DNA of 32,000 nt. Origin: Candidatus Saccharimonadota bacterium (GTDB lineage Bacteria; Patescibacteriota; Microgenomatia; UBA1406; GWC2-37-13). Location of the stretch: the NCBI GenBank assembly GCA_016700135.1, contig CP065004.1, forward strand, positions 1,416,137-1,448,136. Direction: 5' to 3'. This document shows, piece by piece, positions 7,020 to 22,555 of this stretch; positions within the stretch are counted from its first letter, which is position 1, and every line of letters starts with the position of its first letter. Both the position numbers and the translations under genes were made by a program. The notes beneath the pieces are model-generated. The model was not told where the DNA came from, made no database searches, and worked only from the letters and a program-made list of their open reading frames with translations.

Positions 7020-7069
7020 TAATTTCTGATAGCTATAAGCTAAAAGCTATTAACTGACTTATGCTGCCT
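7020..7069 (-). repeat. ribosomal-operon spacer element, copy 1 (rplF-rplR spacer plus last codons of rplF)
   Basis: On the plus strand, TAATTTCTGATAGCTATAAGCTA ... TTATGCTGCCT. It matches 22 of 23 nt and then 11 of 11 nt of copy 3. It contains the mini-hairpin TAGCT-ATA-AGCTA. Confidence 0.75.
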
Positions 7070-7601
7070 TTGCCTTCTTTCCCGGTTTGACACGGACGTG
7101 TTCGCCTTCATAACGAATACCTTTTCCTTTGTATGCGTCAGGTTTCTTTACTGATTTGATCTGATGGGCTACTTCTCCGACAAGCTGTTTATCGATTCCG
7201 GAGATAATAATAATATTGTTTCCCTCCATCGAAAGCTGGATTCCTTCCGGCGCCTTAAAAATTACAGGATGCGAAAGTCCGAGTTTCAGATTCAGATCCC
7301 GTCCCTGCATTTTACCGTTAAAACCGGTTCCGACTATCTCAAGTCTCTTTGACCATCCCTGATCTACGCCTTTCACTGCATTTGCAATGATACTGCGATA
7401 AAGACCGTGAGAAGCTTTCTGTCTTTTTGCTTCTGATTTTCTTTCAATATACAGTGTGTTTTCTTCGTTTCGGATACTCAAAAAATGAGGGAGTTCAAAA
7501 GATAAATTTCCTTTTGATCCTTTTACCTGAACAACCTGACCTTGAATATCAACTTGTACAGAACTCGGTATCTGAATTGGACTTTGGCCTATTTTAGACA
7601 T
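7059..7601 (-). CDS. rplF: 50S ribosomal protein L6
   Basis: 180-aa ORF. It has the MSKIGQSPIQIP N-terminus, two L6 repeats, and a C-terminal GKGIRYEGEHVRVKPGK. Confidence 0.95.
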   Translation of the reverse strand: MSKIGQSPIQIPSSVQVDIQGQVVQVKGSKGNLSFELPHFLSIRNEENTLYIERKSEAKRQKASHGLYRSIIANAVKGVDQGWSKRLEIVGTGFNGKMQGRDLNLKLGLSHPVIFKAPEGIQLSMEGNNIIIISGIDKQLVGEVAHQIKSVKKPDAYKGKGIRYEGEHVRVKPGKKAKAA

Positions 7602-8020: not shown

Positions 8021-8050
8021 TAATTGCTATAAGCTAACAGCTAACTGCTG
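8021..8050 (-). repeat. ribosomal-operon spacer element, copy 2 (rpsS-rpsH spacer, more diverged)
   Basis: TAATTGCTATAAGCTAACAGCTAACTGCTG shares the GCTATAAGCTA core. AATTTC also occurs at 7995..8000 in the same spacer. Confidence 0.55.
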
Positions 8051-8055
8051 ATACA

Positions 8056-8340
8056 TTAGGTCTTATCTGCCGTTCTCTTGGTAACCTTTCCGTGACCTCT
8101 AAAGGTGCGGGTCGGTGAAAATTCTCCCAGTCTGTGTCCGACCATTCCTTCTGAAACAAAGACTTCAATAAATTTTTTCCCGTTATGAACAGCTATTCTG
8201 TGTCCGACAAAGTCAGGATGGATCTGACAGGAACGTGCCCATGTCTGGATCGGTCTTCTCTCACCGGATTCTTTTTGTTTTAGAACTTTTTGATGCAATT
8301 TTTCATCAATATATGGTCCTTTTTTTGCTGAACGAGTCAT
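8056..8340 (-). CDS. rpsS: 30S ribosomal protein S19 (non-canonical position between rpsN and rpsH)
   Basis: 94-aa [18 protein letters not shown]...[51 protein letters not shown] is an unmistakable S19 sequence. Confidence 0.95.
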
Positions 8341-10252: not shown

Positions 10253-10656
10253 TATTTTGTCACAACTTTTGTGTTAACTGTCAGTTTTGCTGCTGCATTT
10301 CTGAGAACTTTTTTTGTTTCCGCTTCACTCAGACCGTCAATTTCAAAAAGAATTCTCCCGGGCGAAACAGATGCTACAAAATATGCGACATCTCCTTTTC
10401 CGGCTCCCATCGTGACCTCCGGCGGTTTCTTCGTATATGGTTTATCAGGAAAAATACGAATCCAGAACTTTCCTTCTTTTCTAGTGGCTCGTGCTAAAAC
10501 GACACGTACAGCTTCGATCTGACGATCCTTGATCCATCCGGCATCAAGAGTCTTCAAACCGTAACTACCAAAATTAAGAGTATCTCCTTTGGTTGCGATT
10601 CTTCTCCAAGTTCCTCTGAATTGTTTTCTGTATTTTTGTCTTTTTGGTGATAACAC
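10252..10656 (-). CDS. rplP: 50S ribosomal protein L16
   Basis: 134-aa ORF with MLSPKRQKYRKQFRG and IWIRIFPDKPYTKKPPEVTMGAGKG. Confidence 0.96.
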   Translation of the reverse strand: MLSPKRQKYRKQFRGTWRRIATKGDTLNFGSYGLKTLDAGWIKDRQIEAVRVVLARATRKEGKFWIRIFPDKPYTKKPPEVTMGAGKGDVAYFVASVSPGRILFEIDGLSEAETKKVLRNAAAKLTVNTKVVTK

Positions 10657-12637: not shown

Positions 12638-12680
12638 TAATTTCTAATAGCTATAAGCTATTAGCTAATTTATGCTGCCT
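12638..12680 (-). repeat. ribosomal-operon spacer element, copy 3 (rplW-rplB spacer plus last codons of rplW)
   Basis: TAATTTCTAATAGCTATAAGCTATTAGCTAATTTATGCTGCCT, with the 7-bp hairpin AATAGCT-ATA-AGCTATT. Confidence 0.75.
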
Positions 12681-12960
12681 GTGGAAATAAATCAATTGAT
12701 CCTTCCGACAGCTTGACGTACGCAATTTTGATATCGGCACGTTTCTTTGTCATCATTTTCTTTCCGACTCTTTTTTCTTTTCCTTTTCGGATTGCAATAC
12801 GGACACTTTCGACTGTTACTTTAAACAACTCTTCTACAGTCTGCGCAACCTGATGCTTATTAGCCTGTGTGTTCACCTCAAACTGATACACTTTATTTTG
12901 TGCCAGCTGCGTGGATTTCTCCGTTACCAGAGGTCGGCTTAAAATATTAGTTATTTTCAT
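12670..12960 (-). CDS. rplW: 50S ribosomal protein L23
   Basis: 96-aa ORF with ILSRPLVTEKS and YQFEVNTQANKHQV. It overlaps the end of rplD by 14 nt. Confidence 0.94.
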   Translation of the reverse strand: MKITNILSRPLVTEKSTQLAQNKVYQFEVNTQANKHQVAQTVEELFKVTVESVRIAIRKGKEKRVGKKMMTKKRADIKIAYVKLSEGSIDLFPQAA

Positions 12961-13633
12961 TTTTCAAAAAATGATTTGTTAACACCGTTATTGCATTATC
13001 AACAAAAATGACTTCGTTGTGGTTGATGACTTCATATGCATTGACTGTTGTTGCCTGTGAGATATCGGCATTTTTTATATTTCTTGTAGAAAGGACTAAT
13101 GCATTCTTTTCTACCTTCGGCATAACAAGAAGTACTTTACCTGTCACTTTCATCGCCTTCAATGCACTTGCAACCGTTTTTGTTTTCGGTTCTTTTGTCA
13201 TTGACTCTGCATCAAGAACTTTAATTGTTCCTTCTTTTGCTTTTTGACTCAGAGAAACGAATAAGGCTTGTTTTTTCTGTTTTTTATTCATGGAAAGAGA
13301 AAAGTCTCGTACCAAAGGTCCGAACGTTGCTCCTCCTCCGCGGAACAAATTTGCTTTTGCTGTACTGTGACGTGCTCTACCTGTTCCTTTTTGTCTGTAT
13401 ATTTTCTGCATTGATCCCGTCACATCTGCTCTTGTTTTTGCTGAAGCATTTCCCTGTCTTTGATTTGCCTGGTACACCCGGACATACTGCGCAAGCAGTT
13501 TGCTGTTCATATCCTGTCCGAAAATTTCTTTCGGCAATGCTTCGGTTTTTGCTGACTTTCCGTCAAGTGCGAAAACGGGAGCTTCCAGTTTTGCTGTTTT
13601 TGTCGTTTCTTTTTTTGCTTTAGTTTGTACCAT
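12947..13633 (-). CDS. rplD: 50S ribosomal protein L4
   Basis: 228-aa ORF with QKGTGRARHSTAKANLFRGGGATFGP. Confidence 0.95.
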   Translation of the reverse strand: MVQTKAKKETTKTAKLEAPVFALDGKSAKTEALPKEIFGQDMNSKLLAQYVRVYQANQRQGNASAKTRADVTGSMQKIYRQKGTGRARHSTAKANLFRGGGATFGPLVRDFSLSMNKKQKKQALFVSLSQKAKEGTIKVLDAESMTKEPKTKTVASALKAMKVTGKVLLVMPKVEKNALVLSTRNIKNADISQATTVNAYEVINHNEVIFVDNAITVLTNHFLKNENN

Positions 13634-15030: not shown

Positions 15031-16215
15031 TTATTTAATGATTTTGGTAACAACACCAGCTCCTACCGTGTGTCCACCTTCGCGGATTGCGAATTTAAGA
15101 CCTTCTTCAAGAGCAATAGGTGCAATAAGTTTTGCTTCGATCTTGATGTTGTCGCCAGGCATGACCATTTCTACGCCTTCTGGGAGTTTGACTTCTCCGG
15201 TCACATCCGTTGTTCGGATGTAGAACTGAGGTCGGTATCCTTTGAAGAACGGTGTGTGTCGTCCGCCTTCTTCTTTCTTAAGAACGTAAATTTCAGCTTC
15301 AAACTCTGTGTGAGGTTTGACTGAACCAGGTTTTGTGATGACCTGTCCGCGTTCCACATCTTCTTTTTCGATTCCTCGAAGAAGAAGTCCTGTGTTGTCT
15401 CCTGCCCGTGCTTCATCAAGAGTTTTTCGGAACATTTCGATTCCTGTTACGACTGTTTTTGTACTATCCTTGAGTCCGACGATTTCGATTTCTTCGTTGA
15501 CTTTGAGGATTCCGCGTTCGACTCTTCCTGTGACGACTGTTCCTCGACCTTGAATGGTGAAAACGTCTTCAACCGGCATAAGGAACGGCTTGTCTGTGTC
15601 TCTTTTCGGTTCCGGGAAGTAATCATCGACTGCTTTCATCAAGTCTTCGATTGCTTTTGTTGCTTCCGGATCATCTTCAAGAGCTTTAAGTGAAGAACCG
15701 CGAATGACGGGTACTTCATCTCCCGGATAATCATATTTCTTCAAAAGATCACGGACTTCCATTTCGACGAGGTCGACGATTTCCTGATCTTGGACCATAT
15801 CAATTTTGTTTAAGTAAACGACGATTGCCGGTACATTGACCTGATTGGCAAGAAGGATGTGTTCTCGAGTCTGAGGCATAGGACCGTCAGGAGCTGAGAC
15901 TACAAGAATAGCACCGTCCATCTGAGCTGCTCCGGTGATCATGTTTTTGATGTAATCAGCATGTCCCGGGGCATCAATATGTGCATAGTGTCTTTTTTCT
16001 GTTTCGTATTCTGAGTGATGAATATTGATGGTGACCCCGCGTGCTTTTTCTTCGGGAGCCTTGTCAATTTCTTCATATTTCATGTCCTTTGCGAGACCTT
16101 TCTTTGAAAGGACGTGATGAATTGCTGAAGTGGTGGTAGTTTTTCCATGGTCGACGTGACCGATGGTACCGATGTTAAGATGGGGTTTATTTCTCTGAAA
16201 TGTGCCCTGTGCCAT
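15031..16215 (-). CDS. tuf: elongation factor Tu
   Basis: 394-aa ORF with [17 protein letters not shown] and NKID GTPase motifs, and full-length EF-Tu similarity. Confidence 0.98.
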
Positions 16216-16261
16216 AGGTATGTATAATTACAATTGATAAATAAATAGATGCCAAAACGTT

Positions 16262-16289
16262 ATTATAAATGATACCACAGAAAATACAA
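16262..16289 (-). promoter_or_regulatory. candidate sigma-70-type promoter for tuf (TTGTAT-16 nt-TATAAT)
   Basis: On the minus strand, TTGTAT is at 16289..16284 and TATAAT at 16267..16262. This is about 46 nt upstream of the tuf ATG and outside the proposed IS end. AT-rich context, so weak support. Confidence 0.25.
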
Positions 16290-16336
16290 GAGGTATACTT
16301 ATGTAAGGCCAATAATATAAAGTATTCCAATAAAAG

Positions 16337-17419
16337 TCAAGAGAATGTATGAGTTCCATACATATGGCACTCTTTAGGTAAAATAGATAATAGGTAATCC
16401 ATAGGTGAAATATTGTTCAGGCTTTTGTGAACTCGCTTTGTATTGTACCAGACGAGGTATTCAATAAGGTGACGATTGAATGATCCGATACCGGTCCACT
16501 TGGTATAGATGTAGGGGTTCATAAATTCTTCCTGGAGTGTTCTGTTTGCTCGCTCAATAAAGGCATTGATCTTGGGACATCTGGGGTAGATAAAGAGGTG
16601 TGGGATATTGTTTTCTTCCAGATAGTCATGGAAGTTTCCCAGATACTCGAGGCCGTTATCTGTTTGTATGGTTTTTATACCATCTTGTATTGGGTATACT
16701 AGTTCCAGTCTTCTCATAAAATCAGCACCGTTTCGGCTGTTGAGTTTTGAGTATCCGTAGGAGAACTGGAATTTGAGTTTGATGTCCACTGCATTGAAGA
16801 CATACAGCTTGATTCCGTGTACAAACTTCGTGATGGTATCAATCTCAATGTATCCGGTATCTTCCACCTTGGGAGACCGCTTGACCTTCTGTCGGTACTT
16901 TACTTTCCGTTTTGCAAAGCCACTTGCTGGATTGTGATAGATCCGGTAGGTCTTGCGCTGCAGGTTGTGTCTTTTGATCACTTTTCCAATGGTTGACTCA
17001 GATATAGTTGAAATTCCTTCCTGTAGGCAATACTCATCAAGTAAGGGCTTGATCTTCTCCTTTCCCAAACAAAAGTATTGTTCTCGAATCTCTTTGATAA
17101 AGGATATGACCTTCGGGTGAGTCTCCATACGTCGGGGTGTCTTTGGCTTGGTTGTCTCTGGTATCAGGCTATCCAACTGCCCTTCTGAATCTCGCCGTCT
17201 CTTCCTCCATCGAAACAATGTCCTTCGTGATATCCCATATGCATCAACTGCAGCTTGTATCCCGTACTTCTCTGCAAATGTCAGAACATCGTTTCTGATT
17301 TGTGCTACATCTGACTGATTGTAGTCTGATAGAGATCGTATCTTTTTCATAAGATCTCTATTGTACTGCCAGTCATAACTCCTAATTACTCGAAGCTGAT
17401 CTCCTCCCCATTTACTCAT
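16337..17419 (-). CDS. DDE transposase with integrase-core (rve) fold, IS481/IS3-like
   Basis: 360-aa ORF with an N-terminal HTH (ISRRTLFRWRKRR). The catalytic triad contexts are YIEIDT, IQTDNGLEY and INAFIERANRTLQEEF (DD35E spacing), followed by a C-terminal YNTKRVHKSL. The ORF 3' end runs through the proposed left inverted repeat. Confidence 0.88.
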   Translation of the reverse strand: MSKWGGDQLRVIRSYDWQYNRDLMKKIRSLSDYNQSDVAQIRNDVLTFAEKYGIQAAVDAYGISRRTLFRWRKRRRDSEGQLDSLIPETTKPKTPRRMETHPKVISFIKEIREQYFCLGKEKIKPLLDEYCLQEGISTISESTIGKVIKRHNLQRKTYRIYHNPASGFAKRKVKYRQKVKRSPKVEDTGYIEIDTITKFVHGIKLYVFNAVDIKLKFQFSYGYSKLNSRNGADFMRRLELVYPIQDGIKTIQTDNGLEYLGNFHDYLEENNIPHLFIYPRCPKINAFIERANRTLQEEFMNPYIYTKWTGIGSFNRHLIEYLVWYNTKRVHKSLNNISPMDYLLSILPKECHMYGTHTFS

Positions 17420-17447
17420 AGATGTTAGTTCCCTATGAGTGCCATAT
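16362..17447 (-). mobile_element. IS481-like insertion sequence (boundaries tentative)
   Basis: Single rve/DDE transposase ORF. Inverted repeats ATATGGCACTC (16362..16372) and GAGTGCCATAT (17437..17447) continue imperfectly inward (TTTAGG versus ATAGG). No clear target-site duplication was seen. Confidence 0.55.
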
Positions 17448-17532
17448 CTTTCGTAACTTATTCAGAGAAAAATGAATCCTTTTTAATATATGTATATATA
17501 AAGAGGGTCTGTATTTATCCGAACTCTAGTGC

Positions 17533-17538
17533 TACAAT
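17533..17538 (+). promoter_or_regulatory. -10-like hexamer TACAAT 9 nt upstream of the helicase ATG
   Basis: Seen directly. No convincing -35 element and no Shine-Dalgarno motif. Confidence 0.2.
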
Positions 17539-17547
17539 GTGACCACT

Positions 17548-20500
17548 ATGGCAACCGACTCGGTAAAACTGAATACATCGCAACAGCAGGCTGTCGAATA
17601 CCACAAAGGACCGCTTCTTATTGTGGCCGGAGCCGGTACCGGCAAAACGACTACACTCGTCGAAAAAATCAAGTATCTCATCAAGAATGACCATGCAAAG
17701 CCTGAGGAAATTCTTTGCCTGACTTTCACCGACAAAGCGGCCTATGAAATGGAAGAACGTGTAGACCGTGCCATGCCGTACGGATATTTTCAGATGTGGA
17801 TCTCGACATTTCACAAGTTTGCAGACGAAATCCTGCGCGACGATATTTATCATCTCGGACTTAATCCAGGTTATGATCTGATGACTCAGGCACAGTCAAT
17901 CCTCTTTCTCAAAAAAAATCTCTTTCACCTCAATCTCAAATACTACCGTCCTGTCAGCAATCCCACAAAATTTGTCGAAGGGCTGCTGCAGCATTTCTCC
18001 AGGCTTCATGATGAAGATATTTCTCCTGAGGAGTATAGTAAGTGGGTAAAAAAACTTTCGAAATATTCTCATTCCGTCCGCCGGCTGGCGGATGATCCGG
18101 AATCCAGGAACAAAAAAACTGGATCCCTGGTCATGCCTGGGATGACAACGGAACAAAATATAAGCACTGAAGAAATCCAGCAATACCAGGAACTTTCCGA
18201 TGCATACGCTACCTATCAAAAGCTCAAAATCGAACATGACGTCATGGATTTTGACGATCTTATTTATTATCTGATCAAACTTTTCCGGGAAAGACCGAAT
18301 GTTTTAAAGCAGTATCAAAACAAATTTAAGTATGTATTGGTTGACGAATTCCAGGATACGAATATCGCACAGTACGAACTCATAAAGCTCCTCTGTCCCA
18401 TAAAAACCAATCCGAATTTGACCGTCGTCGGAGATGATTCTCAGGCAATCTATAAATTCCGCGGAGCATCTGTCTCCAACATTATGACCTTCATGGAGGA
18501 CTATCCGCAGGCAAAGCAGATAAGTCTTGTAGATAATTACCGATCCAATCAAACCATACTTGATCATGCCTATAATCTCATCCAAAACAATAATCCCGAT
18601 ACCCTTGAAAGTAAATTGGGTATCTCAAAAGAGCTGGTCGGACATAAAAAAAATATAAAAGAAGCCGTACAGTTTGAGTTGTTTGCACACGGTGATCAGG
18701 AAGCGGATTGGATTGCAGAGTGTATCGCCGGTTACTTGCAGGATAAAACCTATACCTTCCAGGATTTTGCAATTTTGGTAAGAGCGAACAATCACAGCGA
18801 TCCGATCATCAATGCCTTGAAGCGTGAAGGTATTCCCTTTCAGTTTTTAGGGCCGGGAACGTTATTTAAGCAACCTGAGGTCAAAGATCTGATCGCTTAT
18901 CTGCAAGTTCTCGCTGATCTGAATGATACAGTTTCACTATACCGCGTTCTTTCCATGGATCATTTCGGAATTGATGAACAGGACCTGGTTCTCTATCTCT
19001 CCTTTGCGAAAAAAATTTCCCTTTCTCTTTTCCAGTCACTTGAAGTGGCACTTTCCTTTTTCCATGAAGATTGGTGGAGAGAGGAGTTTGAAGTTTATCG
19101 CGAACATTTACCGCTCGTAAAAGAAGAAACAAAAGAGAAACTAATCCAGATAATCTCCATGATAAAAAAGCATCTCACCCGACTCCGCAAGGATTCAGCC
19201 GGTGAGATCGTGTTCCAGTTCCTGGAAGATACCGAATACCTCAAGAAACTCAGCAATCCTGAAAATGAGTATGATCAGCGAAGAACATTGAACATAACGA
19301 AGTTTTTCCAGAAACTAAAAAGTATGGAGAATGAAATTGAAGACAGTTCGGTTTTTGCCGCAGTCGAGTATATCAATATGAGTCTGGAGATGGGTGAATC
19401 TCCTTTGGCATCCGAGTCTGATGCGGTTCAGACGAATGCTGTAAATATTCTCACGGTGCACGGTGCAAAAGGTTTGGAGTTTCCTGTCGTTTTTCTCCCG
19501 AATCTTATAAACGGCCGTTTTCCTACCCGCCGCAGACGGGAACAGATTCCGATACCTGATGCTCTGATAAAGGAGACAATGCCGAGCGGAGATTATCATA
19601 TTCAGGAAGAAAGGCGGCTGTTTTATGTGGGGATCACCCGTGCAAAAGACAGGCTCTTTTTGTCCGCTTCTGAAATATACGGTGAAGGAGTACGGAAACA
19701 ACGCATATCGCCGTTTGTAGCCGAAACAATCGGTGCCGAAAAAGTCACCGGCAAATCCGCAAAGCAATCCGAACAAAAAGAACAGCTATCCATTTTTGAT
19801 TTTAAGAAAAAGGAAGAAGATCCTCCGATACCAATCCCGACCGAGGTTAAAAATCTTTCATACAGCCAGATCAGTACCTATGAACTCTGTCCCCTGAAAT
19901 ACAAATATCAGTACGTACTGAAAATCCCGACAGGACCCCACGGTGCGGCTTCATTCGGAAGCTCTGTGCACAACGCTCTGCAGAAGTTCTATCAGTTGTT
20001 TACGAAAGACAATGAAGTCGGGCTCACACATCTTCTGAATCTGCTTGAATCTTCCTGGATCCCGGTCGGCTATACCTCCCGGGAGGAACAGACGAAACAA
20101 AAAGAAGAAGCACGTCAGATGCTCGAAAACTATTTTCATTCTTTTCATACTCCTGAGATTGCAGTCAAAGATCTGGAGAAACTCTTCAAAATCAAAGTAG
20201 GAAGTGATGTATGTCTTACCGGAAAAATTGATCGGGTGGATGAAAAGGCTGACGGAGCGATCGAGATCATCGACTACAAAACCGGCAACATGCCTGATGA
20301 AAAGAAACTCAGGAAAGATATGCAGCTTGCCATATATGCAATGGCTGCAAATGACTACGGATTGTATCGCAAACCGATTGAAAAAATTAACCTTTCCTTC
20401 TACTATCTCGCCCATCGTGAAAAGGTAACGGTTACAAGAAACGAAGAAGATATTCACGATGTGAAGCTGAAAGTCAGAGAGATTGCTGATAAAATCCGCA

Positions 20501-20577
20501 TGGGAGAGTTCCCGGCACGTACCGGTCCGTGGTGTGCACGGTGTGATTTCAGAATGATCTGCGAAGCCTGGCAGTGA
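17548..20577 (+). CDS. UvrD/PcrA-family superfamily-1 helicase fused to a C-terminal PD-(D/E)XK (Cas4/AddB-like, 4-Cys) nuclease
   Basis: The ORF track starts at a GTG at 17539, and the first ATG is at 17548. It has Walker A GAGTGKTT, motif II VDEFQDT, TVHGAKGLEF and VGITRAK. The C-terminus has CPLKYKYQY, GKIDRVDE, EIIDYKTG and CARCDFRMIC, which gives one plus three Cys as in Fe-S nucleases. Confidence 0.9.
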   Translation: MATDSVKLNTSQQQAVEYHKGPLLIVAGAGTGKTTTLVEKIKYLIKNDHAKPEEILCLTFTDKAAYEMEERVDRAMPYGYFQMWISTFHKFADEILRDDIYHLGLNPGYDLMTQAQSILFLKKNLFHLNLKYYRPVSNPTKFVEGLLQHFSRLHDEDISPEEYSKWVKKLSKYSHSVRRLADDPESRNKKTGSLVMPGMTTEQNISTEEIQQYQELSDAYATYQKLKIEHDVMDFDDLIYYLIKLFRERPNVLKQYQNKFKYVLVDEFQDTNIAQYELIKLLCPIKTNPNLTVVGDDSQAIYKFRGASVSNIMTFMEDYPQAKQISLVDNYRSNQTILDHAYNLIQNNNPDTLESKLGISKELVGHKKNIKEAVQFELFAHGDQEADWIAECIAGYLQDKTYTFQDFAILVRANNHSDPIINALKREGIPFQFLGPGTLFKQPEVKDLIAYLQVLADLNDTVSLYRVLSMDHFGIDEQDLVLYLSFAKKISLSLFQSLEVALSFFHEDWWREEFEVYREHLPLVKEETKEKLIQIISMIKKHLTRLRKDSAGEIVFQFLEDTEYLKKLSNPENEYDQRRTLNITKFFQKLKSMENEIEDSSVFAAVEYINMSLEMGESPLASESDAVQTNAVNILTVHGAKGLEFPVVFLPNLINGRFPTRRRREQIPIPDALIKETMPSGDYHIQEERRLFYVGITRAKDRLFLSASEIYGEGVRKQRISPFVAETIGAEKVTGKSAKQSEQKEQLSIFDFKKKEEDPPIPIPTEVKNLSYSQISTYELCPLKYKYQYVLKIPTGPHGAASFGSSVHNALQKFYQLFTKDNEVGLTHLLNLLESSWIPVGYTSREEQTKQKEEARQMLENYFHSFHTPEIAVKDLEKLFKIKVGSDVCLTGKIDRVDEKADGAIEIIDYKTGNMPDEKKLRKDMQLAIYAMAANDYGLYRKPIEKINLSFYYLAHREKVTVTRNEEDIHDVKLKVREIADKIRMGEFPARTGPWCARCDFRMICEAWQ
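18069..18107 (+). repeat. expanded hairpin-repeat copy F inside the helicase CDS
   Basis: The sequence is TCATTCCG-TCCGCC-GGCT-GGCGGA-TGAT-CCGGAATCCAG. Its ends match the family ends (TCATYCC ... GGAATCCAG). The outer stem is ATTCCG/CGGAAT, with a nested 6-bp stem TCCGCC/GGCGGA. Confidence 0.6.
18119..18146 (-). repeat. 28-nt hairpin-repeat copy E inside the helicase CDS
   Basis: The reverse complement is GTCATCCCAGGCATGACCAGGGATCCAG. It matches copy D at 26 of 28 positions and has one stem mismatch. Confidence 0.85.
20055..20089 (-). repeat. possible degenerate hairpin-repeat copy G inside the helicase nuclease domain
   Basis: CTGGATCCCGG is an exact 11-mer match to the reverse complement of copy A. 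A stem TCCCGG/CCGGGA with a 13-nt loop follows, then GGAAC. It may instead be native coding sequence. Confidence 0.3.
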
Positions 20578-20612
20578 AAGTAATAATGAGTGTTACGCAA
20601 ACGTACTTCGTT

Positions 20613-20640
20613 GTCATCCCGGACTTGATCCGGGATCCAG
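20613..20640 (+). repeat. 28-nt hairpin-repeat copy A
   Basis: GTCATCCCGGACTTGATCCGGGATCCAG, with 8-bp stem ATCCCGGA/TCCGGGAT and loop CTTGA. Confidence 0.9.
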
Positions 20641-20641
20641 T

Positions 20642-20655
20642 GTAATCCTGAACTT
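20642..20655 (+). repeat. half-copy of the hairpin repeat
   Basis: GTAATCCTGAACTT matches the first 14 nt of copy B (GTCATCCTGAACTT) at 13 of 14 positions. No second arm follows. Confidence 0.45.
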
Positions 20656-20679
20656 TGAGCCAAAGGCTCATCGTTTTTT
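20656..20679 (+). terminator. intrinsic terminator candidate after the helicase gene
   Basis: TGAGCC-AAA-GGCTCA followed by TCGTTTTTT on the plus strand. Confidence 0.55.
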
Positions 20680-20688
20680 GGACGGGTT

Positions 20689-21408
20689 TCAGGATCTTCT
20701 ATACCTCAACACTACTTCATCATCCAGTTTCTCGACATTCAGAAGTTCAAACTGAGGCACTGCATCGGAAGGGAACAAAATTCCTTCAGTCATCGTGAGA
20801 GTTTTTCCCGGTAGCGATCCGAAGATCTTCGGTGCAATTGTGAGATGGACTTCGTCGAGTACATTCTCTTGAAGTAACTGCGCGATCAGTGTCGGGCCGC
20901 CGTCAATGAATACGTTTTGATGACCTTTTGAGTTGAGATAACGGATAAGATCTGCAATCTGTACATGCCCTGCGCCTTCTGTGACCTTTTCAACATTAAA
21001 TGCCTGACTTACTTCACCGGTAATTTCTGTAGATGAATTCGTCAAAATCGTCGGTTTATATCCGTGATCGTTTGCAAGTTTCGATGCCAACTCTTCATCA
21101 GGGGAGGTTGTCAGAATGATAAACTCAGGAACACCTTCTTTGCCGATCTCTTTCCTGAATCCCTGATACATCTCATCATTGATCGTACGGATCGTGTATT
21201 TTCCGAATTGCATCGCGGTATTTTTTGCATCCACGATCGCATCGGCATGAGCTCTCAGATAGGTAAAATATTCGTAATCCTTTTTTGATCCGATCGGCCA
21301 GTATCCTTTCTCTTTTACGATAATCTTCCCGTCGATACTCGATACAAAACTGGTGAACATATACGGCCGGTTTGCGGGTTTTTGAAAATCAAATGGTTGA
21401 CGTGTCAT
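20689..21408 (-). CDS. RibD C-terminal-domain / dihydrofolate-reductase-like reductase
   Basis: The ORF track extends to 21480, but that N-terminal extension (..SVIPGLTWEP..) is a translation of repeat copy C. The ATG at 21408 gives MTRQPFDF... The body has FVSSIDGKI and FIDGGPTLIAQLLQENVLDEVHLTIAPKIFG, typical of the RibD_C/DHFR-like family. Confidence 0.8.
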   Translation of the reverse strand: MTRQPFDFQKPANRPYMFTSFVSSIDGKIIVKEKGYWPIGSKKDYEYFTYLRAHADAIVDAKNTAMQFGKYTIRTINDEMYQGFRKEIGKEGVPEFIILTTSPDEELASKLANDHGYKPTILTNSSTEITGEVSQAFNVEKVTEGAGHVQIADLIRYLNSKGHQNVFIDGGPTLIAQLLQENVLDEVHLTIAPKIFGSLPGKTLTMTEGILFPSDAVPQFELLNVEKLDDEVVLRYRRS

Positions 21409-21419
21409 GTTGTTTTTTA

Positions 21420-21447
21420 CTGGTTCCCAGGTCAAGCCTGGGATAAC
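21420..21447 (-). repeat. 28-nt hairpin-repeat copy C
   Basis: The reverse complement is GTTATCCCAGGCTTGACCTGGGAACCAG. It lies 11 nt upstream of the reductase ATG. Confidence 0.85.
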
Positions 21448-21475
21448 AGACAAGTAAATTAAATATATTATAACT

Positions 21476-21503
21476 GTCATCCTGAACTTGATTCAGGATC
21501 CAG
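21476..21503 (+). repeat. 28-nt hairpin-repeat copy B
   Basis: GTCATCCTGAACTTGATTCAGGATCCAG, with a perfect 8-bp stem. It lies 2 nt beyond the GIY-YIG stop codon. Confidence 0.9.
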
Positions 21504-21505
21504 TT

Positions 21506-21796
21506 TTATTTTATCATTTCTTTATAAAGATCATTCCATTGCGGATTTTTCGACTCGATTAGCTCTAATTTCCAGGCTCTTTTCCAAGCTTTTAACTGTT
21601 TTTCACGCCTTAAAGCTCGATTTACATCATTAAATACTTCATAATAAACGAGAATATGTACGTTATACTGAGCAGTAAATCCTTTCACTATTTTATTTCT
21701 ATGTTCCCAAGTACGTTTAATCAGATCAGAAGTAACTCCAATATAAAGTGTTCCGTTGCGTTGACTTGCCAATATGTATACAAAATATGTTCCCAT
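21506..21796 (-). CDS. small stand-alone GIY-YIG nuclease-domain protein (COG2827 / UPF0213 type)
   Basis: The ORF track extends to 21838, but the extra MHCHPRLDLGSSTI is a translation of repeat copy D. The ATG at 21796 gives MGTYFVYILASQRNGTLYIGVTSDLIKRTWEHRNK..GFTAQYNVHILVYYE...REKQLKAWKRAWKLELIE..NPQWNDL, the classic GIY-YIG short-form pattern (96 aa). Confidence 0.88.
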   Translation of the reverse strand: MGTYFVYILASQRNGTLYIGVTSDLIKRTWEHRNKIVKGFTAQYNVHILVYYEVFNDVNRALRREKQLKAWKRAWKLELIESKNPQWNDLYKEMIK

Positions 21797-21803
21797 TATT
21801 GTG

Positions 21804-21831
21804 CTGGATCCCAGGTCAAGCCTGGGATGAC
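21804..21831 (-). repeat. 28-nt hairpin-repeat copy D
   Basis: The reverse complement is GTCATCCCAGGCTTGACCTGGGATCCAG, with a perfect 8-bp stem. It lies 7 nt upstream of the GIY-YIG ATG. Confidence 0.9.
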
Positions 21832-21880
21832 AATGCACCTGTAAAGAATTTCAAGCGGATTATAAACATTAACTTCTCCC

Positions 21881-22555
21881 TTAGTTCACAATCACCTTCG
21901 ATTTTTTTGCATCCTTTTTCAGCCAGTTCACACCGATATAGACAAGAGGTGTCTCAATGACGGACATCGAACATTTAAGAAGCCAGTACGGCAGAATCAA
22001 ACTGAACAAGAAGGAAACATTCTCATCAAATCCGCGATCCAGAGAATAAAATGCCAAGGTCATAAAGAGCGCAGTATCAATAAACTGTGCAATAAAGTTC
22101 GAAGCATTGTTCCTCAGCCATAACTTACTTTTTCCCATTCTCTTTCTGATTTTGCTGAAAATCGCAATATCCAGAAAGTCGGCAACTGCAAACGCAGTCA
22201 GACTTGCGATGGTAATACGTAATGATTTTCCGAAAACAGAATCATAGGCCGCTTCACTCTCCGCAAATCTGCCGGAAGGGGGAAGAGAGATCGAAAGAAC
22301 GATAAAGAGCATCAACAGAACGATCATCGTGAGACCCGTTCGGACAATACTCCGTGCGCGCTCCGCTCCGTATACTTCAATAACAACGTCATTGATGGTA
22401 AACAACAACGGAAGAAGGAATATTGCAACACTGGCATTCAAAGTATACGTCCCGAAAGTCACAAGAGGAAATGTTTTGGCACCCATCAGTTCCGAAACGA
22501 TAATCCCGAAAATGTATACTCCAACCAGAAGATCCATTTTTTGAATGTTGAACAT
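21881..22555 (-). CDS. yhhQ: queuosine-precursor (preQ0/preQ1) transporter, YhhQ/VUT family
   Basis: 224-aa membrane ORF. PLLFTINDVVIEVYG, ADFLDIAIFSKIR and NASNFIAQFIDTALFMTLAF match the DUF165/YhhQ family pattern. Confidence 0.8.
   Translation of the reverse strand: MFNIQKMDLLVGVYIFGIIVSELMGAKTFPLVTFGTYTLNASVAIFLLPLLFTINDVVIEVYGAERARSIVRTGLTMIVLLMLFIVLSISLPPSGRFAESEAAYDSVFGKSLRITIASLTAFAVADFLDIAIFSKIRKRMGKSKLWLRNNASNFIAQFIDTALFMTLAFYSLDRGFDENVSFLFSLILPYWLLKCSMSVIETPLVYIGVNWLKKDAKKSKVIVN

Follow-up and report, generated by a model that had tools for sequence, protein, structure and literature searches.

An inverted hairpin dimer carried in frame in a helicase gene of a Patescibacteria genome and its likely relation to an ssnA cassette

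How does a conserved protein-coding gene come to carry a pair of palindromic repeats that is read through in frame, and where does such a pair come from? The question is raised by a stretch of 32,000 nucleotides (nt) from a Candidatus Saccharimonadota bacterium (assembly GCA_016700135.1, contig CP065004.1, positions 1,416,137 to 1,448,136 of the forward strand), the whole of which is called the window here and is numbered from its first letter. In this window, a gene for a UvrD/PcrA-type helicase fused to a nuclease contains two hairpin copies, named F and E, which together form an inverted dimer of a known, TGTC-tagged repeat family. The reading frame passes through the dimer, which occupies a tolerant loop in a gene that is conserved elsewhere. 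We consider it likely that it derives from, or is a substrate of, a cassette in which similar hairpins flank a homologue of the nuclease gene ssnA, and that the spread and homogenization of such dimers are linked to the SsnA nuclease. The features at the insertion site are as follows.

17539..20577, plus strand: host gene, a UvrD/PcrA-type helicase fused to a PD-(D/E)XK nuclease, 1012 amino acids (aa)
18067..18147, plus strand: in-frame hairpin dimer (TCTCAT...ATGACA), 81 nt, codons 177-203, peptide SHSVRRLADDPESRNKKTGSLVMPGMT
18067..18107, plus strand: copy F, a tagged hairpin with the core 18069-18107 reading TCATTCCG-TCCGCCGGCTGGCGGA-TGATCCGGAATCCAG
18119..18147, minus strand: copy E, a canonical 29-mer, TGTCATCCCAGGCATGACCAGGGATCCAG on the minus strand, with the core 18119-18146 reading CTGGATCCCTGGTCATGCCTGGGATGAC

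The dimer and its place in the helicase gene

Copies F and E are inverted, with their CCAG ends facing each other across an 11-nt gap, and span 78 nt without the full end motifs. Copy E is 26/28 identical to copy D (21804-21831), and one of the two substitutions breaks a stem pair. In a relative with the same gene order and a helicase 93% identical (locus L001), the orthologue of copy E is identical to copy D at 29/29 positions. The F/E pair lies within the open reading frame (ORF) 17539..20577, with the translation ...KYSHSVRRLADDPESRNKKTGSLVMPGMTTEQN.... A first-pass annotation of the window had described the pair as two copies read through inside the helicase gene, and the recomputed coordinates, identity to copy D, orientation, gap and span all agree with it, as does the frame, which runs through an intact ORF of 1012 aa.

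Copy F is predicted to fold as a nested hairpin. A 16-nt GC hairpin, TCCGCCGGCTGGCGGA, stands in place of the canonical GACT (the end of the left arm and the start of the loop), a net expansion of 12 nt, or four codons, over the canonical hairpin. As single-stranded DNA (ssDNA), the 81-nt unit folds into both predicted hairpins (z = -3.9 against shuffles). The idea that the GC hairpin is a one-off expansion of copy F was rejected, because the module recurs in the RibD_C gene of L001 and in eight metagenomic F-type hairpins; the F-type copies in these contexts have covarying outer stems. F-type hairpins, read as ...VRQLADD..., are also present within long metagenomic ORFs. The inner module by itself, GTCCGCCRGYTGGCGGATGAT, was found in 87 distinct metagenomic contexts (loci L129-L233); tagged hairpins account for 8 of the 87, the other 79 are contexts of other kinds, and a T-run follows in four. 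A weak repeat match elsewhere in the helicase gene (17848-17882, family D4, 69%) was treated as chance.

The host protein contains the Pfam domains UvrD-helicase, UvrD_C and PDDEXK_1 and is assigned to PcrA/Rep/UvrD by NCBIfam; its relatives belong to Roizmanbacteria, Woesebacteria and other Patescibacteria. Alignment of 104 sequences reveals an intact ORF with every conserved and invariant motif present. Query residues 10-168 align with PcrA 11-163 and residues 217-351 with PcrA 171-303, and therefore residues 169-216 (48 residues) replace a seven-residue loop of domain 1B, PcrA 164-170. The insert is located between motifs Ia and II. Of the two domains named in the first-pass annotation, 1B is borne out by the PcrA alignment and 2B is not. 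The loop at PcrA 164-170 is the nick site that splits PcrA into two chains in structure 1QHH. In an AlphaFold model made with 104 sequences, the mean predicted local distance difference test score (pLDDT) is 80.7 overall and about 90 in the flanking helices, and across residues 181-210 the means of ten-residue blocks drop to 55, 39 and 58. Judging from the low pLDDT and the protease nick at this site, the insert loop is probably exposed on the surface.

Comparison with the 120 orthologues listed supports an insertion into a permissive, floppy surface loop, as had been proposed from the window alone. Between the conserved W169 and E218 there are anywhere from 2 to 52 residues, most often 12. 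The inserted residues are not conserved in orthologues without repeats: most of those listed have 2-20 residues at the site and no repeat trace. Recognisable translated hairpin pairs, with the pattern C-H-P/S-...-G-S ... G-S-...-G-M-T, are confined to the window and to P0001-4, P0008, P0009 and P0014, relatives with 96, 93, 86, 85, 69, 68 and 63% identity; possible remnants of a translated pair occur in P0005, P0007 and P0017. Four further orthologues (P0051, P0053, P0089 and P0107) have other insertions in the same loop, ending GMT, RMT or EMT, which look like translated hairpins of related sub-families. The helicase loop of L003, a syntenic relative that has no dimer, contains a small hairpin, CATCCGCCAGATGGCGGAC (10490-10520), which resembles the inner module of copy F in a different frame and could be a remnant or an independent arrival.

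The five helicase inserts compared at the DNA level all have lengths of 81 or 69 nt and are read in the stop-free frame C/S-H-...-G-M-T. One or two of their six frames are open, and the used frame is stop-free in each; in the window insert, the stop-free frames among the six checked are the used frame and the matching frame of the opposite strand. These observations bear on the idea that the segment is never translated, either because the gene is a pseudogene or because the hairpin pair is cut out of the transcript or bypassed. We regard this as very improbable. The ORF of 1012 aa is intact with all invariant motifs, and the gene-wide ratio of non-synonymous to synonymous differences per site (pN/pS) is 0.06. 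Lengths divisible by three and stop-free frames would not be needed if the segment were removed, so that removal is unlikely; both hold for the five helicase inserts and for a net insert of 69 nt in the L001 RibD_C gene. No match to an intron or ribozyme family was found. By these measures the host gene is under purifying selection, and the insert is in frame, stop-free and absent from most orthologues.

An assembly artefact or chimera, or a chance likeness to the intergenic repeats, deserves next to no credence. Repeats do break assemblies, and one contig (L234) ends beside ssnA hairpins. However, at least three different populations (L001/L002, L235 and the window) show the same insertion in their assemblies, homologous dimers are present in the relatives L124, L125 and L126, copy E of L001 is identical to D over 29/29 positions, and the chance expectation is about 0.

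The divergence of the insert differs from that of its host gene. Between the window and L001, the rest of the helicase gene has a proportion of synonymous differences (pS) of 0.64 and the pN/pS of 0.06 given above, whereas the insert has five non-synonymous changes and one synonymous change (pN/pS 1.6), with 6/81 nt different in all. Third positions are identical throughout codons 168-211, whereas the median elsewhere is 12 differing third positions per 27 codons, and the low-divergence tract reaches about 25 nt past the dimer on both sides. The inserts of L124 and L125 are 86% identical and their flanks about 70%. Because pN/pS is 1.6 and yet few nucleotides differ, the insert peptide is unconstrained, and the DNA is either constrained or repeatedly homogenized. 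The relative L235 (96% identical) points the same way: it has a canonical 29-mer, TGTCATTCCGGACTTGATCAGGAATCCAG, at the position of copy F, a 12-nt in-frame difference from the window and L001.

A widespread family of tagged hairpins

Seven related copies, A to G, are located within 3.8 kb of the window. Those outside the helicase gene are listed here.

20612..20640, plus strand: copy A, an intergenic hairpin 3' of the helicase gene, an exact match to the published SRM string
20641..20698, plus strand: copy G, with arms TGTAATCCTGAA and TTCAGGATC and a 35-nt loop (z = -3.95)
21420..21448, minus strand: copy B, a hairpin just upstream of the RibD_C start codon, with tags pointing inward toward copy C
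21475..21503, plus strand: copy C, a hairpin ending 2 nt from the stop codon of the GIY-YIG gene
21804..21832, minus strand: copy D, a hairpin 7 nt upstream of the ssnA start codon, inverted relative to C

The consensus of the family is TGTC-AT-CC(N4)-CTTGA-(N4)GG-AT-CCAG. Copies A to E share an 8-bp stem, ATCCNNNN, a 5-nt loop, CTTGA, and the tail CCAG; copies F and G keep the stem and tail and have enlarged loops. The tag is TGTC in A, C, D and E, TGTT in B, TCTC in F and TGTA in G, and the orthologues of copy F in L001 and L235 carry TGTC.

For strict repeat patterns the chance expectation in the window is 0. In species-representative genomes, at least 120 loci match an exact IUPAC pattern of the repeat, for which about 2 chance matches are expected in 596 Gb; the phyla among the matches listed include Alpha-, Beta-, Gamma- and Deltaproteobacteria, Campylobacterota, Nitrospirota, Elusimicrobia, Planctomycetes and many Patescibacteria. 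When 56 distinct copies are aligned, the 8-bp stem is paired in 98.2% of cells, and slid controls reach at most 56%. Changes on both sides of the stem occur in 92 cells compared with 24.7 in shuffles, and 0/500 shuffles reach 92. Since the chance expectation is about 0 and the stem is kept through compensatory changes, the similarity between copies is not due to chance; it does not fade as more copies are added, and the first-pass grouping of the copies thus stands.

Neisseria repeats of the same build are known as NTS, with the sequence CGTCATTCCCGCGMAVGCGGGAATCYRG, which extends dRS3, and their degenerate forms as SRM (Chenal et al. 2025, Nat Commun 16:2388, PMC11893778). The published SRM string, HGTCWYN(0-2)YYVSBRHN(0-5)WNVSBRGN(0-2)RNCYNB, is matched exactly by copy A (shuffle mean 0.08). 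Copies were searched by tag plus stem, since the string recognises copy A only. Rfam at gathering thresholds gives no match in the window. CGTC-tagged repetitive extragenic palindromic sequences (REPs) have been equated with Neisseria dRS3 and with RPE-6 and RPE-4 of R. conorii (Di Nocera et al. 2013, PMC3733652). On sequence grounds we assign the window repeat to this CGTC-REP / dRS3 / NTS / SRM superfamily as a TGTC-tagged member, and it is not lineage-specific. The first-pass comparison with Rickettsia palindromic elements (RPEs) hence turns out to be better than an analogy, as the superfamily includes RPE-4 and RPE-6.

In 0.9 Mb of matched loci, 16 dimers have their tags outward, 5 have them inward and 5 are direct. 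Of the exact copies among the matches listed, 19/138 are embedded in ORFs of 150 aa or more with 40 or more codons to either side, against 64% of random positions. Some of the embedded copies are plausibly in restriction-modification-like, MiaB-like and YjeF-like enzymes and an oxidase, as far as their translations can be read. In Sphingomonas echinoides (L082, 60-640), hairpin dimers form a tandem array with a period of 163 nt, and 2 kb of a Saccharimonadales contig (L083, 4970-6830) hold four dimers or more. An exact copy (L037, 366-394) is also present on a contig assigned to a Methanosarcinales archaeon, perhaps through a binning error.

Some window copies lie at the ends of the RibD_C gene next to the helicase. 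The loop of copy G contains a terminator-like hairpin, GAGCC-AAA-GGCTC, with a T-run. RibD_C takes its final codons and stop codon from the right arm of copy G, and its C-terminus in the window differs from that in L003. In L001, the orthologue of copy A (13050-13110) has a 23-nt insertion in its loop; taken with F and G, it suggests that nested insertions go preferentially into hairpin loops. The longest RibD_C ORF (20689-21480, minus strand) extends upstream through copy B, and the RibD_C gene call of L001 (13136-13996, 286 aa) also includes the upstream stretch through copy B. Because the real start is probably the ATG at 21408, this N-terminal extension is likely to be an annotation artefact of the stop-free hairpin.

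The ssnA cassette, close relatives and the probable source of the dimer

Copies C and D enclose a small gene which provides the candidate enzyme.

21506..21796, minus strand: ssnA homologue, a single-domain GIY-YIG nuclease of 96 aa, 3.4 kb downstream of the insert

The Pfam GIY-YIG domain covers residues 4-77 of the 96-aa protein (18-91 of the scanned 110-aa ORF with a GTG start), and no other domain was found. The protein is 100% identical to P0121, labelled Candidatus Roizmanbacteria. In a tblastn search it matches a locus of N. gonorrhoeae with 58.9% identity over 94% of the query (E = 9e-29), which lies within the threshold for homology to Neisseria SsnA (E < 1e-10) taken from Chenal et al. 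2025. The matching locus is embedded in canonical NTS repeats and, from this context, is probably the orthologue of NMV_0044. A PDB sequence search and NCBIfam gave no informative match for the protein, and Y1_Tnp was not matched by any of the six window ORFs scanned with Pfam (15031-22555) or by the called genes of L001 and L003.

The order C-ssnA-D makes up a hairpin-gene-hairpin cassette with inverted flanking copies. The same layout is present in L001, in L126 and at a paralogue locus, L127; the syntenic relative L003 has neither the ssnA gene nor the flanking hairpins. Helicase dimer and ssnA cassette share the same outward-tagged arrangement.

Close relatives suggest that dimers of this type have come and gone. 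In L001 a second in-frame dimer, 81 nt long and encoding CHAVRQLADDSESSDSISGSRIESGMT, is located in the RibD_C gene on the minus strand (about 13390-13480). It is composed of an F-type hairpin, 11 nt and a canonical hairpin, amounts to a net +69 nt, and is stop-free in the used frame; neither the window nor L003 has a dimer at this position. L126 (69% identical) has a helicase dimer made up of the two hairpins found beside its own ssnA gene, one C-type and one D-type, set 11 nt apart, and a single base differs, in the D-type copy. L124 (63% identical) has the same dimer type in its helicase and in the rplC-rpsJ spacer.

These dimers are difficult to reconcile with one ancient helicase insertion that has since been shaped by vertical descent, losses, allele transfer and gene conversion, with neither element-specific transposition nor a role of SsnA. 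Such a history would leave unexplained the new RibD_C dimer of L001, the same dimer type at two unrelated loci of L124, the match between the L126 dimer and its own ssnA flanks, and the same 29-mer across many phyla. We hold it to be a real possibility all the same, if somewhat unlikely, as several features agree with it. The window and L125 inserts can be aligned gap-free over the spacer motif AACAAAAAAA and the right hairpin, four inserts have 81 nt, the low-divergence tract continues for about 25 nt beyond the dimer on each side, and possible remnants are present at the site in L003, P0007 and P0017. Recombination in this gene is in evidence as well: the last ~65 helicase codons (20375-20574) are identical in the window and L001 despite the gene-wide pS of 0.64, and look like a recent recombination tract.

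It is also conceivable that the insert has been recruited, as a peptide modifying domain 1B, as a regulatory DNA or RNA hairpin, or as an SsnA site which limits recombination of incoming ssDNA in the way that NTS does in Neisseria. The insert DNA is much better conserved than neutral sites would be, and such hairpins occupy the loop in several lineages. Published work reports an excess of intragenic REPs in repair genes (Di Nocera 2013, PMC3733652) and a modulation of transformation by NTS/SsnA (Chenal 2025, PMC11893778). However, the peptide is unconstrained (pN/pS 1.6), pLDDT is low over the insert, most orthologues are without it, copy E in the window has a stem-breaking substitution, and Rfam has no match. 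We therefore think recruitment unlikely.

An SsnA-linked origin would account for the dimers in the following way. They would be gene-less derivatives, or the natural substrate, of the hairpin-ssnA-hairpin cassette, and a single-strand process involving the SsnA GIY-YIG nuclease would propagate them and keep their DNA uniform. The cuts by SsnA, each made in the tagged strand, would fall 5' of F in the top strand and 5' of E in the bottom strand, that is, at both outer borders of the dimer. Copying, repair, recombination or gene conversion between copies or related strains could then spread and homogenize the hairpins, and selection would retain only in-frame, stop-free insertions in permissive loops. 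Whatever the part of SsnA, the dimer became fixed in the helicase because the domain 1B loop is tolerant of length, the dimer length is divisible by three and the frame used is stop-free. The insert itself encodes a disordered passenger peptide of 27 residues with no sign of amino-acid selection.

A number of points weigh against this account. No target-site duplication was found at the five helicase junctions or in the RibD_C filled/empty pair, and the latter differs by +86 nt together with -17 nt of the target, with no clean junction. On the neighbour-joining tree of the helicase, the dimers are scattered in a way that needs at least three gains, or one gain and many losses; this patchy distribution fits either repeated insertion or one old insertion with losses and allele exchange. 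Copies B to G fail the published SRM string because they have A/T in their stems where the string requires S. Translation of the insert is likewise something we infer, from conservation of the frame. GIY-YIG nucleases hydrolyse DNA, and we know of no strand-transfer activity for SsnA, whose part as mobilizer is suggested by the arrangement of genes and hairpins.

Two observations concern the surroundings. An ORF for an rve-type integrase with a helix-turn-helix (360 aa, 16337-17419, minus strand) is located between tuf and the helicase gene and is probably a recent insertion-sequence arrival; in L001, L124 and L126 tuf adjoins the helicase gene (with a called 49-aa ORF between them in L001), and L003 has a methyltransferase-like gene there. 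A stop-codon-rich motif, AGCTATAAGCTATTAGCT, occurs in three short spacers between ribosomal-protein genes (7033-7072, 8027-8066 and 12644-12683).

Relation to known repeat systems

Each known system resembles the window locus in part. RPE-1 is reportedly a palindromic repeat that is carried in frame in genes which stay functional; it is said to lie in surface loops, to be absent from orthologues, and to be a single long palindrome of about 100-150 bp. The window insert shares its in-frame placement in a loop and its absence from most orthologues. It differs in being made of two hairpins of 29-41 nt with an 11-nt spacer. With cut-and-paste miniature inverted-repeat transposable elements, the window dimer shares inverted ends, TGTCAT/ATGACA, but a target-site duplication was not found at the six junctions compared.

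The nearest relatives among described repeats are the CGTC-tagged REPs, for which inverted dimers are the prevailing arrangement (Di Nocera, De Gregorio & Rocco 2013, BMC Genomics 14:522, PMC3733652). They have an unpaired CGTC tag (or TGTC/CCTC), a stem of 8-9 bp starting with AT, a loop of 4-5 nt and a CCA tail; intragenic dimers encode 20-30 aa, and many are in UvrD/Rep, UvrABC and RecBCD genes. The same paper names five phyla, mainly Alphaproteobacteria, without bacteria of the candidate phyla radiation (CPR)/Patescibacteria among them, and its census found no associated enzyme. The window repeats share the tag, the stem with first pairs A-T and T-A, the loop, the CCA tail and the inverted dimers, and differ in that copies F and G have loops enlarged by nested hairpins. 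Because in-frame REP dimers in UvrD/Rep and RecBCD genes were reported in 2013, the helicase insert is a known phenomenon, here in a CPR bacterium, and the first-pass annotation overstated its case in treating in-frame insertion as novel for the repeat family. It also missed the GIY-YIG (ssnA) gene between copies C and D.

The Neisseria NTS/SRM repeats add the enzyme. According to Chenal et al. 2025 (PMC11893778), they flank ssnA, which encodes a single-domain GIY-YIG nuclease of about 94 aa that binds the hairpin and cuts ssDNA just upstream; in-frame insertion is not mentioned there. In common with the window repeats they have GTCAT(T/C)CC-stem-loop-stem-GG(A/G)ATCCAG and a GIY-YIG gene for about 95 aa flanked on both sides by inverted copies, with copies clustered around the gene. 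In N. meningitidis 2% of them are inside genes (same paper), and in the window 2/7 copies are coding. Most stems in the window use pairs containing A/T, outside the published string, and the CPR protein is known from its sequence.

What is new here is the CPR setting, the link to ssnA, and a set of informative close relatives: the L001 RibD_C dimer, the L126 match and the conservation at the DNA level. The helicase case thus joins two literatures, the 2013 REP census without an enzyme and the 2025 discovery of SsnA. The relatives are well suited for asking whether SsnA moves or homogenizes hairpins, with RibD_C filled and empty, copy F canonical and expanded, and the L126 dimer. For annotation, peptides of the form CHP.L..GS and GS...PGMT, as well as N-terminal ORF extensions through such hairpins, can be read as translated repeats.

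REPIN/RAYT systems offer the closest parallel in organization. There, REPs form inverted doublets, a gene flanked by inverted REPs is the presumed mobilizer, and hairpins are recognised as ssDNA (Bertels & Rainey 2011; Nunvar 2010; Ton-Hoang 2012). The window system has inverted doublets and a single-copy gene between inverted REPs as well, but the gene encodes a GIY-YIG hydrolase and not a Y1 HUH transposase, and the tag is CGTC/TGTC and not GTAG. To our knowledge, no covalent-intermediate chemistry has been described for an enzyme of this GIY-YIG type. A stronger version of the SsnA-linked account would make the cassette an autonomous element and the dimers its gene-less, REPIN-like derivatives, mobilized by a GIY-YIG nuclease that cuts their outer borders, active in CPR bacteria and inserted repeatedly, in frame, in the same helicase loop. 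We offer this version tentatively and consider it rather doubtful; if it were true, the GIY-YIG cassette and its dimers would be a second, mechanistically distinct counterpart of RAYT and REPIN.

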